From Fidelibacterota bacterium (GTDB lineage: Bacteria; Fidelibacterota; Marinisomatia; Marinisomatales; TCS56): 6,387 bases of DNA. Shown here piece after piece: positions 763 through 6,387 of the stretch (position 1 is the stretch's first letter; the number at the start of each line of letters is the position of its first letter). The stretch is from positions 1-6,387 of the forward strand of contig JBDRBK010000178.1 in the NCBI GenBank assembly GCA_043822705.1. The letters are read 5' to 3'. Position numbers: made by a program.

Positions 763-3700
763 CCGAGCCGTTGAAAAGCGCCCCGAAATTAGTGGTTTCG
801 GTCACATAAATCCAAGTCTATCTCGGGACGCCCGGAAATTTGCTTGTCATCCGTCGGAAAACCGCCTATGTTCGGCGGCGCTGAAAACGCTGAATAACAT
901 GAAAATTGTATTAGCCACCCATAACCGGCATAAAGTCGCGGAATTCACCCGGGCGCTGCAGGATTTTGAACCTGAAATCCTGAGTCTGGATGATTTCCCG
1001 CAGGTCGGTGAAATCGACGAGACCGGCACCACCCTGAGCGAGAATGCACTGCTCAAGGCCCGCACCGTGCAGCGCCTGACCGGCCGGCCGGCAATTGCCG
1101 ATGACACCGGGTTGGAAGTGGACGCCCTGGGCGGCGCCCCCGGCGTTTATTCGGCGCGCTGGGCCGGGGCCGGGGCCAGCTATGCCGACAACAATCGTAA
1201 ACTATTGACCGAGCTGGCGTCCGTGCCGGCGGACCGGCGCAGGGCGCGTTTTCGCTGCGTCATCGCTTATGTCGACGACCGCTGGGAACTAACGGCGGAG
1301 GGTACCGTAGAAGGCAGCATTCTGGATCGGCCGGCCGGGTCCGGCGGATTCGGCTACGATCCGGTGTTCTGGCTGCCGGAACTGCAGAAAACACTGGCGG
1401 AACTGACGCCGGAAGAGAAAAATGCCGTAAGTCACCGTGGATTCGCTATTAGAAATTTCCGTAAACTATTCAGTGAAAAAATTCAACCAGGCTTAAATGA
1501 GGAGTGACCTTTAGACCCACCGCTACCAGTTCGTTTTGAATAAACAGGTTGAGTAATTAATAATAGATGCGGAACTCCGGTGAAAAATAGTCGGCTTGCC
1601 GTCTGCACCAGCTTTCTGATCTTCATCGGGCTTAGTGCGCTTTGGAGTCAGCCGGCTAATCCCGTGCGAGTGCAGGCGATTCGTCTCAACGTCCAATCAC
1701 GGTTTGTCGTGGATCCTTTTCCGGCCTTGCCGGTAGCAATCGGCCTGCTGGGCGATACCCTGATCCACGCCCGGGGACTGGTTGCGCTGCCCTTTAAAAA
1801 GACCGAAAAGCAGGCCACGATAACACCCGACTGGAGCACGATCACGATCACCGAAGTCAGCGATGGTCAGACCTACAAGATGCCGCTGACCGCGCCCCTG
1901 GACTGGTATTTCAACGCCATGCTGGAACGGCAGGGGATGATCAGTTTCAAGGCCGCCATGCGCGGTCAGGCCAAGACTCCCGCCGCGGACAGTGGTACCC
2001 GTCGGTCCGGTAAGTCGTTAGAACTGGTCGGAGTGGATGTCGGCGAACTGGGCCGGGTGGCCCTGCGGGTCCGCGGGAATGTCAATATTTCCGGGAAAAT
2101 GGTTTTCCAGGACCAGCAATTGAATTACGCCAATTATAACGAATCGCAGAATACCCACATCGAATTCGACCAGAAACAGAACCTGAATATCGAAGGTAAA
2201 ATCGGCGATCGGATCACGATCCTGATGGACCAGGATTCGGAGCGCGATTTCGACTGGGAAAACAATATCCGGATCACCTATGATGGCCAGGAAGATGAAA
2301 TAATCCAGAAAGTCGAAGCCGGAAATATTTCATTGTCGCTGCCATCGACCCAGTACGTCACTTTTTCGGGAAAAAACCAGGGATTGTTCGGCCTCAAGGC
2401 GATTTCCAAACTGGGGCCGGTCGATATCACCACCATCGCTTCGATCGAACAGACCCGCAAGGAGAAACAAAAATTCTCCGGTTCCAACACCGCCCAGACC
2501 CAGCGGATTCCGGATTACCAGTACCGCAAGGACCAGTATTTCTTCATCCATGAATGGTTCCGCAACGGTGTGGACACCACCATCGCCGTCAGCGGTCAGT
2601 CACTGCACGGCGTCATTTTTCCTTTTTATCCGCTGTCCGCGGATGGAAAACATTACCAGGGTAACCTGATCGTCAAGGATTTCGAACTGTTCAAATCACG
2701 CTCGGGCGGTGTCTCCGTGGCCGGCGAAAAAACCGGTATCGCCTATGTGAATCCCGATCAGGTCGACAGTTATTCCGACTGGACCGAAAACCAGGTTTTT
2801 GTGCGGATGGAACGGGACAATGATTATTATATCAACGAAGATTTCGGTTATCTCCGAATTCGTACGCCGATCAACAACGAGGTGCTGGGCTGCATTTTCA
2901 AGCTGGTGGTGGCCGGAACCGGCGATACGCTGAAGATCATCGGATCGGCCTCCGCCGCGGACGACACGCTAAAGATGCAACTGCTCCGGCCGCAGGCCCC
3001 GACCCCCCAGCATCCTTCCTGGGACCTGATGTTCAAGAATGTCTATTACCTGGGTACCTCCAACATAAATACCGAAGGGTTCGCCGTCCGGATCATCAAC
3101 GACCAGGTAACGCCGGCCAGTGAGTGGGACGGCGCGGGTACGGCTTATCTGACCCATTTCGGCCTCGATCTTAACGATGATGTCAATTCCGGTAAACCCG
3201 ACCAGAAAATTGATTATACCAATCCCAATATCGTGAATCTGGCCAACGGCGAAATTCTTTTTCCGACTTTTCATCCCTTCATTGCCGCCGCCGATTCGCT
3301 GGGTGGCGGCAGCAGCGCTGCGGCGCTGGCGGAGCTGTTGGGCGAAGGTATCATGTACACTTCCACCGACCAGGACAAGCTCCGCCGCGACAGCCGGTTC
3401 ACGATCGAAGCCGATTACACCAACCTGGCCAGCAATATCAGCCTTGGTTTCATGGTGGTGGAAGGTAGCGAAGAAGTCAAGCTGGACGGTGTGACCCTGA
3501 TACGCGGCACCGATTACCAGATCGATTATTTCGGCGGCACGCTGATTTTCCTGAACGAGGCGGCCATGGCGCCGGGTGCCAATCTGGAGGTAATGTACGA
3601 AAAACATGAATTAGTCTCATTCGACAAAAAGACCATCATCGGCACCCGGGCGCAAATGGATTTCGGTGAAAATTCCTTCATCGGCGTCACGGCCTTGTAT

Positions 3701-6387
3701 TATAACCAGTCGGTCCTGAATGAGAAAATCGAGGTTGGCTATGAACCGACCAGGAATTTCATCTGGGATTTTAATGGCCGGTTCAACACCGATCTGGAGG
3801 GTGTCACGCGCCTGCTGGACCGGTTGCCGTTCCTGGAAACGGAAAAGATGACGTCGGTCGCCATCGAAGGCGAGTTCGCCCAGGTGCTGCCCAATCCCAA
3901 TCCGATCAACAATCCCGCCACCGGTGACGACAACGGCGTGGCATATATTGATGATTTCGAAGGCGCCAAGCGTACCACCACGCCCCAGGTCCAGCAGCGC
4001 TACTGGCGGTCGTCGTCGGCGCCCCTCGATCCCGAATCAGGTGAACAGTTACCGCAATCCAATCGGGCGCAGTTGTACTGGTACAATCCCTATTATCCGG
4101 TGGCCACCACCGATATCTGGCCCAACCAGTCGGTCTCGCGCCAGGCCCAGAATGAGACCACGCACATTCTGGCGCTTAATATGAGCCATCAGAAACACCA
4201 GTCCCAGGTTCCCGATGATTCGATCTGGGCCGGTATCGTCAGTCCGTTTTTCAGCGGTGATTATGACCAGACCCGCAGCAAGTTCTTTGAAATCTGGCTG
4301 CGCGGCACCGAAGGCCGTTTAACAGTGGACCTGGGGCGGATCAGCGAAGACTGGAATGGGAACAATAAACTGGACACGGAGGACCGGCCCGAGGCCGGGT
4401 TCAGCCTCGGCAACGGTCAACTGGATAAGGGTGAAGATGTAGGTCTGGATGGCTGTGGCGACGAATATGAAGACGGCTGGGGCGGCTGTCTCGATCCCAA
4501 CGGTCTTACCTATGCCGAATATTACGATCTTGGCGACATGGTACATATCAACCGCAATGGTCTGCGTCCCGACGACCGCAACTATAATCCGGTCGACGAC
4601 CCCAACGGCGACAATTACAAGAAGTACCAGGGCGGCGACCCGCGCTATGTAAACGGCACGGAAGGCAACAGCGAATTCGAGGGTGGTTTTTATCCCGACA
4701 CGGAGGACATTGATGGCTCCGGCTTTCTCGATCGCACCAATGATTATTTCACCAAGTCCTTCAGCCTGGATAAAAACGCGGACGATGCCGAGTATGTCGC
4801 CGGTGAAACAATTAAGGACGGCACATTAACAGGCTGGCGCCTGTACCGGATTCCCCTGAATCATTTTACCAAAATCAAACCGGATGGTTCAATCGACTGG
4901 AATGATATTAGAAATATCCGGTTAAGCCTGACCGGTGTCGATTCCGTCGCGGGACTGCAGGTGGCGAAGATCGAGCTGGTCGGTAATGAATGGAAAGAAT
5001 TAGGTATCAGTATCGCCGACACCGCCGAATATGCCATCGACGACAGCGTTTTCGCGATAACGATCATCAATACCGAAGACAATCCCGGCTACACTCCGCC
5101 CAAGGGCGTTAAGGGTGAATATGACCGGATCAATGAGATCCGCGCCAAGGAACAGTCGCTGGTTTTGAAATTCGACGATCTGCCGGGGGGCGCCCGCGGG
5201 GCGGCGGAAAAGACCCTGATGACGCTGACCGGGGAACGGGCTCAGAGCTACCTGACCTATGACCGGATGAAAATGTTTGTTTATGGCGATTGTCCCGGCG
5301 CGGTCGGGTTGGATGAGACCGACCTGGAATTTTTCCTACAGTTTGGCAAGGGTAACTATTATTATGAGGTCAGTCAGCCGGTCTATGAAGGCTGGGATGA
5401 GACCAGGAAACGGAATGCGGTCGACCTTGATCTGGAATGGCTGACCGGCTTGAAACTGGCGGACTCAACTACCGTGAAAAAGATCAATGCCGACGATGTC
5501 TTCCGGGATTCGGCCGATGTCAAGGAATACCATTTCAGTGATAACGACGGCGTACTGACCGGCCGCAGGATTCGGATCAAAGGCACGCCGGCCCTGTCCC
5601 AGATTCAATATATGCGGGTCGGGGTGCGCAACGTCTCGGCGCTGCCGCTATCGGGCGAGGTCTGGATCGACGAACTGCGCCTCAGCGGTGTCAGGAAAGA
5701 TCGCGGCGTAGCGATGCGCGTGCAGGGGAAAATCGATCTGGCCGATATCGCTTCCACTACCGTGGCCTACAGTCGCAAAGATGCCGATTTCCACGTGCTG
5801 CAGCAGCGGCTGGGTAGCGCCAGTTCCAGCGAGGATTTCCGGATCAATGCCAGCCTGAAGCTGGATAAATTCCTGCCCAAAGCCTGGGGATTGAAAGTAC
5901 CGGTCTCGACCTCCTTTTCCAACACCGTCAGCCGGCCTAAATATCATCCTGGATCTGATATTCTGCTCAATCAGGATAACATTCCCGATTCGCTGCTGAC
6001 ATTGAGCAATTCGATCAACCTGACGACCTCGATTGCCAAATCGACTCGTTCCGATAACCGCCTGATCAAGTATACCGTCGATCAAATCAGTACCAGCTTC
6101 ACTGCTAAACAGAGTACGGCGTCCAACTATCAGACCGCGCGCAACTGGTCCGAAGCCTACACCGGAAAGATCAGCTATTCGCTGCCGTTCGGCAGCAATA
6201 ATTATGTCGCACCGTTGAAATGGCTGAAACCGCTGCCGCTGCTCGGCAATAAACTGAGCGATCTGCATCTTTATTACACGCCCACCAATATCAGCACCAA
6301 TCTGAATGTGAGTGAGACCTATACCGAGAAGGAACCGCGGGCCGGGACAAAGACCACCACCGATTATAGTCTTGGTATGACGCGGGC

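Follow-up and report, generated by a model that had tools for sequence, protein, structure and literature searches.

The type IX system of protein secretion (T9SS) in the phylum Marinisomatota (SAR406/Marinimicrobia) probably consists of outer-membrane and cargo-handling parts only, as judged from gene content, with the GldLM motor and the GldKN ring or track missing. In Bacteroidota, the core of type IX secretion is taken to be the GldLM/PorLM motor, driven by the proton-motive force, together with the GldKN/PorKN ring or track. The parts in Marinisomatota would be SprA and the PorV-family carrier barrels, to which most lineages appear to add the sortase PorU and the regulator PorX, a glutaminyl cyclase, a TPR lipoprotein like PorW/SprE, and a PorZ-like propeller paired with a PorQ-like barrel. 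The Bacteroidota energy chain, that is, the motor of GldL/PorL and GldM/PorM and the ring or track of GldK/PorK and GldN/PorN, would be lacking. Proteins that leave by Sec and carry a C-terminal sorting domain (CTD) would still cross via SprA, bound to a PorV carrier, and release of the carrier would need no mechanical input or would draw it from another transducer, for which ExbB-ExbD-TonB may be the sole candidate present throughout.

The window, a stretch of 6,387 nucleotides, belongs to a metagenome-assembled genome (MAG) referred to here as G000. SprA, with its 36 strands, is the translocon of type IX secretion in the outer membrane, and the long ORF of the window (Table 1) encodes, on sequence grounds, a true SprA/Sov protein from a Marinisomatota MAG. 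It scores 734.5 bits with TIGR04189 over profile positions 371-1673, above the whole-protein cut-off of 200, and 141 bits with SprA_N. A sequence search with the window protein directly matches the Flavobacterium johnsoniae SprA structures (PDB 6H3I, 6H3J, 8GL6 and others) at E of about 1e-72, with the strongest stretch at residues 1001-1579. The whole gene has about 2100 codons and is cut by the contig end, such that the window holds its 5' three-quarters; the remaining operon genes lie with its 3' remainder on contig C89. The preliminary description had likewise reported a SprA of 1602 residues that runs off the contig. Full-length orthologues of 2022-2191 residues occur in 59 of 80 related loci, and one of them (L002) reaches 801 bits with TIGR04189. 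At about 2100 residues, SprA is some 300 residues shorter here than the solved F. johnsoniae chain of 2403. Its N-terminal region is variable, and no TonB-box-like motif is conserved there.

Table 1. Location of the sprA gene, its upstream neighbour and the MotAB/FliF-like module in G000
Feature	Location	Strand	Basis or remark
rdgB/Ham1 non-canonical purine NTP pyrophosphatase	window, 899..1507	+	Ham1p_like 231.3 bits, NF011397 239.6 bits
sprA/sov, 5' part, 1602 codons	window, 1580..6385	+	TIGR04189, SprA_N and PDB matches; 3' end open
sprA 3' remainder, 528 codons	contig C89, 14038-15624	-	TIGR04189 profile positions 2085-2305
MotA-MotB-FliF-like-FliG-like operon	contig C154, 35434-43078		with two TPR proteins and a CarboxypepD_reg protein

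The surroundings of sprA are conserved. The rdgB gene lies upstream in all 75 related loci whose upstream sequence extends to 800 nt or more, and the operon order is rdgB, sprA, glutaminyl cyclase, lipoprotein, PorZ-like, PorV-like and PorQ-like, with the Bacteroidota-type cyclase gene directly after sprA. Genes for PorV-, PorQ- and PorZ-like proteins share the operon with sprA in 41-43 of 49 loci. The conserved operon ties the T9SS parts together; this linkage of sprA to a cyclase and to attachment-complex-like genes sets the phylum apart from the Bacteroidota system. Around the PorV and PorW-like genes, synteny revealed only a TRAP transporter and housekeeping genes.

The sortase PorU is encoded on contig C37 of G000 (592.7 bits against a cut-off of 420; E 3.8e-178, where 2e-178 had been given before) and was found in 56 of 61 genomes of the order at E<=1e-60, 42 of these over the cut-off. 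The regulator PorX, also reported in the preliminary description, is on contig C20 (622.4 bits, cut-off 300) and is present in 182 of 201 phylum genomes at 600-711 bits. Profile searches of the streamlined genus g17 detected neither PorU (0/5) nor PorX (0/13). Besides PorU itself, 48 ORFs of G000 align with the PorU profile in its terminal sorting domain alone, and an HMM trained on the lineage gives 84 and then 86 CTD ORFs, so that the 61 cargo proteins counted earlier fall between these values; one example CTD protein scores 37.5 bits with Por_Secre_tail. PorV paralogues are numerous too: the lineage HMM finds 21 ORFs for PorV/PorQ-family barrels, where 12 had been counted before. The PorV-like barrel of the sprA operon scores 91.8 bits with PorV_fam (cut-off 90). 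Scores with the stricter T9SS_OM_PorV model stay under its cut-off of 250, at 157.8 bits.

The preliminary description went too far in stating that PorW and PorZ are absent. A TPR lipoprotein of 629 residues in G000 resembles PorW/SprE at a sub-threshold 98.9 bits with NF052312 (cut-off 250), a profile with which TPR proteins cross-match; it has no sequence match in the PDB. The PorZ-like protein of the sprA operon, a beta-propeller with a CTD, scores 33.7 bits with NF052228 (cut-off 260; E 1.4e-8), and the top Foldseek match of its model (pLDDT 88) is PorZ, 5M11, at a TM-score of 0.36; the model has a single propeller where PorZ has two. The adjoining barrel scores 65.1 bits with PorV_fam and 42.5 bits with PorQ. 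The operon lipoprotein, called fam5, was modelled as two generic Ig/FnIII-like sandwiches (pLDDT 88.7) and was set aside, as no T9SS-specific match was obtained. Structure models cover these last two proteins, PorZ-like and fam5, neither of which is a motor candidate.

GldK, GldL, GldM and GldN were sought in 201 phylum genomes, which are related MAGs and not independent observations. No match to the 524-position GldM profile was obtained in G000 at E<=10, nor in any of the 201 genomes at E<=0.01, and GldN was found in none of the 201, G000 included, at E<=0.001; no positive control was among the genomes searched. The best GldL match in G000 has 10.3 bits (E 0.624) against a cut-off of 68.3, which none of the 201 genomes surpasses. 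The highest score is 26.4 bits. The weak matches lie in ORFs of 376-1175 residues and were discarded on account of these large ORFs, one of which, when read through, proved to be RmuC. Matches to GldK in G000 reach 56.4, 36.7 and 19.1 bits (cut-off 350), the best of them being confined to the FGE domain; none of the 201 genomes passes the cut-off, and the best match among them, at 121.7 bits, covers the FGE half only. The FGE-domain genes on contigs C92 and C20 were dropped as gldK candidates, as no gldLMN-like genes follow them. A GldK-like protein of genome G187 aligns over its full length (99 bits) and has ABC transporters as neighbours; since many members of its family carry a T9SS sorting domain, it was taken for cargo rather than a ring component. 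With the best GldK-like protein as query, the 120 protein matches listed were all FGE-domain proteins; many of these bear a sorting domain, and not one is named GldK. For all four families, these searches reproduce the earlier results for G000.

The absence of the four proteins is based on profiles whose sensitivity was not calibrated with a T9SS-positive Bacteroidota genome. Contrary to the preliminary description, the control genomes do include a member of Bacteroidota, B. thetaiotaomicron, which matched none of the T9SS families. A 1.6-Mb genome labelled Winogradskyella (L032) carries SprA of the Marinisomatota type and no GldM, and a P. distasonis record named 'plasmid 23' has sprA and no GldM. 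The T9SS search of a Haliscomenobacter plasmid found nothing, and no PorK record came up when plasmids were searched by tblastn with two FGE-domain proteins. The same Bacteroidota-trained profiles do recognize other T9SS proteins of the phylum, at 1.4 to 3.7 times their cut-offs (SprA 734 against 200, PorX 622 against 300 and PorU 593 against 420), and a faint signal remains even for the PorZ-like protein, strongly diverged as it is.

Membrane architecture was screened as well, with a gene caller and a transmembrane (TM) predictor that are crude. In G000, no GldL-like 2-TM protein adjoins a bitopic protein of at least 300 residues. Seven 2-TM/1-TM pairs were found there: five were scanned with Pfam and dropped as a methyltransferase, a weak match of ECF type, histidine kinases, a BatA-like pair with VWA domains, and CdaA next to a protein that has no Pfam annotation and was taken for CdaR; the sixth is a MotAB pair on C100, and the seventh lies on C115.

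SprA was detected in 199 of the 201 phylum genomes, in 198 of them over the cut-off, and in all 140 of high quality. Even in streamlined genomes of 0.8-1.1 Mb, a sprA gene of about 2080 codons is retained alongside CTD proteins and PorV-family barrels; in genus g17, all 13 genomes have sprA. One genome, G105, is a single circular contig of 969,550 bp with overlapping ends. It holds SprA, glutaminyl cyclase, four CTD cargos, two PorV-family barrels (217.6 and 121.7 bits) and a PorW/SprE-like protein (107.8 bits against the cut-off of 250, again with cross-matching TPR proteins). The architecture screen of G105 gave no neighbouring 2-TM/1-TM pair and no lone 2-TM protein like GldL/GldM; six pairs and ten lone 2-TM proteins were inspected and all were dropped. 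An NCBIfam scan of 66 envelope proteins of G105, 44 bitopic and 22 small secreted or outer-membrane-like, gave no Gld or Por motor or ring match, and none to PorG, PorP/SprF or PorT. Nine of the 44 and eight of the 22 matched no NCBIfam family; for one of the nine, the G000 homologue is dipeptidase-like. Since motor genes went undetected in the single-contig G105 too, the missing motor is not an effect of gaps in the assemblies. The pared-down T9SS proposed in the preliminary description, without detectable GldK, GldL, GldM or GldN, is thus upheld across the 201 phylum genomes, in single-contig genomes and by the architecture screens.

Its author had suggested that the C154 operon of Table 1 or a MotAB pair on contig C153 could power secretion. 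The genes are real: the FliG-like protein of C154 scores 71.3 bits with FliG_C, the FliF-like protein matches in its ring-building part only (34 bits), the MotA and MotB of the module have orthologues in the single-contig genomes G162 and G068, and the C153 pair lies beside CTD cargo genes. G000 also has ordinary flagellar genes on C28 and a canonical FliG on C208. As a general motor, the module is refuted, because four near-closed genomes with SprA do not have it (G105, G202 and G057, of one contig each, and G203, of two); of these, G202 and G057 have PorX too. The sole MotA/ExbB-family gene of these four is exbB, in the arrangement exbB-exbD-exbD-tonB. The family (PF01618) is matched in 196 of 201 phylum genomes, which corrects the earlier statement that three of four relatives tested lacked any MotA match; 42 of the 201 have exactly one match, and this is exbB in the four examined. 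The module is also not linked to T9SS genes, and it is most improbable that either C154 or C153 encodes the T9SS motor.

ExbB-ExbD-TonB belongs to a proton-motive-force-driven stator family of the 5:2 type that acts on outer-membrane barrels. Given that it is the only such stator system kept in the smallest genomes, and in view of the breadth of PF01618, it might, beyond serving TonB-dependent receptors, drive ejection of PorV-cargo complexes from SprA. We regard this as improbable, if less so than a role for MotAB. The exbB, exbD and tonB genes are not linked genetically with sprA, with porV or with the gene for the PorW-like protein, there is no sign of contact with SprA or PorV, and the variable SprA N-terminus offers no conserved TonB box. 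The same genomes carry, by sequence features, several SusC/TBDT-like receptors, which already explain why ExbBD-TonB is retained. A further alternative is that an equivalent of GldLM/GldKN is present, but is too diverged, or non-homologous, for profiles and architecture screens. GldL, GldM and GldN are fast-evolving, and analogues without sequence similarity escape profiles; the PorZ-like and PorW/SprE-like proteins fall far under their family cut-offs, the four profiles had no positive control, and G105 has its family-less proteins. This reading is unlikely, yet it has more in its favour than a TonB drive. GldM gives no match, other T9SS proteins score well above their cut-offs, and no GldL-like protein next to a large bitopic one was seen in G000 or the closed G105. 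Finally, SprA may not be, or not only be, the pore for CTD cargo, with CTD proteins handled otherwise or the system a relic. Secretion by T9SS in the phylum is predicted from gene content, and g17 dispenses with PorU and PorX, but the retention of so long a gene in genomes of about 1 Mb, the operon with PorV-, PorQ- and PorZ-like genes and the 48-86 CTD ORFs of G000 make this highly unlikely.

The system without motor and ring, which we favour, shares with the T9SS of F. johnsoniae and Porphyromonas gingivalis SprA/Sov, PorV-family carriers, PorU, PorX, type A sorting domains on many secreted proteins, the Bacteroidota-type glutaminyl cyclase and, as candidates, the PorW/SprE-like and PorZ/PorQ-like proteins. 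It differs in that GldL/PorL, GldM/PorM, GldK/PorK and GldN/PorN went undetected in the 201 genomes. No counterpart was detected of the PorKN ring or GldJKN track with its PorG disulfide link, as described by Liu et al. 2025 (PMC12635249), and the FGE-sulfatase-domain proteins found here are not GldK. In Bacteroidota, the step that requires energy is taken to be the one in which SprA lets go of the carrier-cargo complex (PMC10994853). Literature searches outside subscription journals found no paper that joins T9SS with Marinimicrobia, SAR406, Marinisomatota or Fidelibacterota; Fidelibacter multiformis (PMC11652737) is now a representative of the phylum in culture.

These observations may be extended, tentatively and at somewhat less than an even chance, to the proposal that SprA-PorV, as a module of translocon and carrier, is an ancestral device for outer-membrane secretion that suffices by itself. 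A phylum of the FCB group would run it without GldLM or GldKN/PorKN, with ejection occurring without mechanical force or with TonB, and the Bacteroidota energy chain would be a later addition tied to gliding. If true, this would run against the proposal, in PMC12635249, that the T9SS evolved within the gliding machinery. An ocean-abundant sister phylum in which 199 of 201 genomes keep the translocon, those of about 1 Mb among them, and in which no energy chain is detectable amounts to a natural knock-out, which opens tests of the role of the motor and of whether secretion or gliding came first. The pore may therefore work without the motor and ring proteins that are thought to power type IX secretion.

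The gene in the window is a real and ordinary sprA, as the preliminary description had held. In profile searches its product reaches 734.5 bits with TIGR04189, the SprA/Sov equivalog (cut-off 200), and 141 bits with SprA_N of Pfam, and it directly matches the solved F. johnsoniae SprA (6H3I/6H3J) with E about 1e-72. The window, of 6387 bases, is contig C178 of a metagenome-assembled genome (MAG) that comprises 3.34 Mb in 218 contigs and is 93.25% complete and 6.07% contaminated. The best 80 relatives of the locus in the genome collection are 46-65% identical, and their labels are nearly all Marinimicrobia, Neomarinimicrobiota or Fidelibacterota, which places the organism in Marinisomatota (SAR406). 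One MAG named Winogradskyella (G001, locus L032, CAXRJK010000016.1) is a 1.6-Mb genome without GldM, with SprA of the Marinisomatota type at 55% identity; its label, or its binning, looks wrong. An SprA fragment in the related genome G069 scores 1048.8 bits over 862 aa, well above the phylum's own SprA, and the contig carrying it is probably Bacteroidota contamination. The 388-kb 'plasmid 23' of Parabacteroides distasonis (NZ_OY725768.1, L104) bears chromosomal ruvA, sprA and trkH, and this assembly seems to be a chromosome filed as plasmids. The window opens with the 3' end of an ORF that has no match in Pfam or NCBIfam.

The gene order around sprA was obtained by clustering the ORFs of 80 related loci, with denominators that differ by gene. 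The order is fixed: rdgB, sprA, a glutaminyl cyclase, a lipoprotein family termed fam5, a beta-propeller protein with a type IX secretion system (T9SS) C-terminal sorting domain (CTD), a PorV/PorQ-family barrel and a second, PorQ-like barrel. rdgB precedes sprA in 75/75 loci with upstream sequence, the sprA product spans 2022-2191 aa, and the cyclase, a Bacteroidota-type enzyme, comes after it in 52 or more of 55 loci. Next come fam5 (40/49), the propeller protein (43/49), and the first and second barrels (41/49 for each). The remainder of the operon in the window's genome is found on contig C89, which encodes the SprA C-terminus (528 aa), the cyclase, fam5, and PorZ-like, PorV-like and PorQ-like proteins; the PorV-like barrel scores 91.8 bits on PorV_fam (cut-off 90). 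fam5 is modelled (pLDDT 88.7) as two Ig/FnIII-like sandwiches of a generic kind. The first Foldseek match of the PorZ-like model (pLDDT 88.0) is P. gingivalis PorZ (5M11), with a TM-score of only 0.36, and the model has one propeller whereas P. gingivalis PorZ has two. When the first polar residue following signal-peptide-like N-termini was crudely counted, it was Gln in 31% of cases in this genome and 30% in the closed relative G105, against backgrounds of 12% and 9%. This suggests that the 'Q-rule' described for Bacteroidetes applies here too, genetically tied to sprA.

Coordinates of the features discussed (C, contigs of the window's genome unless another genome is named; L, related loci)
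Feature	Location	Strand	Remarks
ORF 3' end	window 1-210	+	69 aa, 5'-open
rdgB/Ham1	window 899-1507		upstream of sprA
sprA 5' part	window 1580..6385	+	ORF, 1602 codons, open at contig end
glutaminyl cyclase	C89:13090-14025; L002:16234-17184	- (C89)	6QRO, E 1.6e-50
second PorU-like ORF	C84:6568-11226	-	1553 aa
flagellar motAB	C28		in flgD-flgE-motAB-fliL-fliM-fliN cluster
motAB	C100:677-5724 = L095	-	beside response regulator with HD (HD-GYP-like) domain and PAS histidine kinase
motAB	C153		adjoining CTD cargo
exbB-exbD-exbD-tonB-tonB	C154		
CarboxypepD_reg-TPR-TPR-motA-motB-FliF-like-FliG-like	C154:35434-43078 = L092:10434-18078	-	seven genes
FGE-sulfatase-domain protein, genome G187	L158:8446-9774		
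SprA fragment, genome G069	G069:C105:2-2587		

Other T9SS parts listed in the preliminary description are also borne out. PorU scores 592.7 bits on C37 (cut-off 420) and PorX 622.4 bits on C20 (cut-off 300), and lineage-trained HMMs find 84-86 CTD ORFs and 21 PorV/PorQ-family ORFs. Another 48 ORFs match the PorU profile only at its sorting-domain end. The claim that PorW and PorZ are missing was too strong, given a TPR lipoprotein on C212 that is PorW/SprE-like (98.9 bits, cut-off 250) and the PorZ-like protein of C89 (33.7 bits on NF052228), although both fall below the cut-offs. The second PorU-like ORF, on C84, matches the PorU profile with 177.6 bits over its N-terminal two-thirds and with 63.3 bits at its end, and may be a sortase paralogue; the related genomes G011, G012, G026 and G027 have ORFs like it, about 1555-1614 aa long.

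None of the four families that energize the known system, the motor proteins GldL and GldM and the ring or track proteins GldK and GldN, was recovered. In the window's genome GldM has no match at E<=10 and GldN none at E<=0.001, GldL reaches just 10.3 bits, and GldK, with a cut-off of 350 bits, yields 56.4, 36.7 and 19.1, all from FGE-sulfatase-domain proteins with unrelated neighbours. The searches were extended to an even sample of 201 genomes of the phylum, 140 of them of high quality (>=90% complete, <=5% contaminated). SprA is found in 199 of these, above cut-off in 198 and in 140/140 of the high-quality genomes, and PorX in 182 (600-711 bits); within the order, 56 of 61 genomes have PorU. 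GldM is found in 0/201 at E<=0.01 and GldN in 0/201 at E<=0.001; neither GldK (best 121.7 bits, FGE half only) nor GldL (best 26.4 bits, ORFs of 376-1175 aa) exceeds its cut-off in any of the 201. One weak GldL match, when read through, proved to be RmuC. An FGE-sulfatase-domain family (P0003-P0091, and a protein of G187) matches the GldK profile over its whole length at 99 bits. Among the matches listed, many of these proteins, from Marinimicrobia, Latescibacteria, Melioribacteraceae and others, bear a T9SS sorting domain; they are secreted FGE-like enzymes, possibly relatives of the GldK/GldJ lineage. The G187 protein, the one GldK-like protein matched at full length, has ABC transporter neighbours; it was rejected as a ring component and is read as cargo because its family often bears the sorting domain.

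A Bacteroidota genome in the control set, B. thetaiotaomicron, matches no T9SS family. Lacking a T9SS-positive Bacteroidota control, the claim of absence rests on internal controls, on the visible PorZ-like protein and on architecture screens. In the same pipeline the phylum's SprA, PorX and PorU exceed the cut-offs of Bacteroidota-built profiles by factors of 1.4 to 3.7, and even a 34-bit PorZ-like protein was seen by profile search.

Several relatives are single contigs. G105 (969,550 bp, 32.6% G+C, about 1024 ORFs) is considered circular because its contig ends overlap. It encodes a 2084-aa SprA with the cyclase next to it, two PorV-family barrels (217.6 and 121.7 bits), a PorW/SprE-like protein (107.8 bits) and four CTD proteins; PorU, PorX, a PorZ-like protein and fam5 were not found. 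Its genus, g17 (G105, G020, G203 and others, 0.8-1.1 Mb), keeps SprA in 13/13 genomes, with PorX in 0/13 and PorU in 0/5, the smallest T9SS gene set observed in this analysis. NCBIfam scans of 66 G105 envelope proteins gave no match for the Gld/Por motor, the ring, PorG, PorP or PorT.

An unrecognized analogue of the energy chain would be an unlikely explanation. A screen of G105, based on crude ORF calling and simple hydropathy, looked for small proteins carrying two N-terminal transmembrane helices beside a bitopic protein; the pairs it yielded were limited to LapA/LapB, Bat proteins, an RND adaptor and the like, and the same screen of the window's genome was negative. Lone two-helix proteins of G105, tried as GldL, were CoxB-like, BatA-like or TPR proteins. 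These screens make a hidden GldLM pair less likely. Coupling to TonB is less probable still. The window's genome has five MotA/ExbB-family genes, and at least one PF01618 match occurs in 196/201 phylum genomes, exactly one in 42. In G105, G202, G057 and G203, all with SprA and two (G202 and G057) also with PorX, the sole PF01618 gene is the exbB of an exbB-exbD-exbD-tonB cluster, which leaves ExbBD-TonB as the one known PMF transducer present in every case. However, neither linkage to T9SS genes nor a TonB-box-like motif in SprA was found, and SusC-like receptors in these genomes account for the presence of ExbBD-TonB. The same four genomes leave very little probability for the flagellar-type module proposed earlier, a FliF-like/MotAB motor, and show that it is not general. 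The C154 cluster, separate from the ordinary flagellar genes of C28 and C208 (which bears the canonical FliG), has a FliF-like protein with the ring-building part only and MotA/MotB orthologues in the single-contig genomes G162 and G068; the cluster has the appearance of a non-flagellar rotary machine. A non-secretory role for the SprA system is equally improbable.

In reviews the T9SS is assigned to Bacteroidota or, loosely, to the FCB superphylum (PMC11205867). CTDs have been noted beyond Bacteroidetes in Melioribacter and Chitinispirillum (PMC3534657, PMC4814513), and BLAST hints of the T9SS in Chlorobi, Fibrobacteres and Ignavibacteriae (PMC5837995); no paper in the literature searched joins T9SS terms to this phylum. 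GldLM is the energizer in the motor literature (10.1101/2022.01.28.478170), and Lauber et al. 2024 deduced that the energy-requiring step is release of the carrier-substrate complex (PMC10994853). Liu et al. 2025 connect the translocon, by way of PorG, to the GldJKN track or PorKN ring, and infer an origin of the T9SS inside the gliding machinery (PMC12635249). Judged by sequence and simple architecture, the phylum has a T9SS variant without the whole energy chain. The reading that the chain is truly absent and that an outer-membrane-only system works without it is somewhat better than an even bet.
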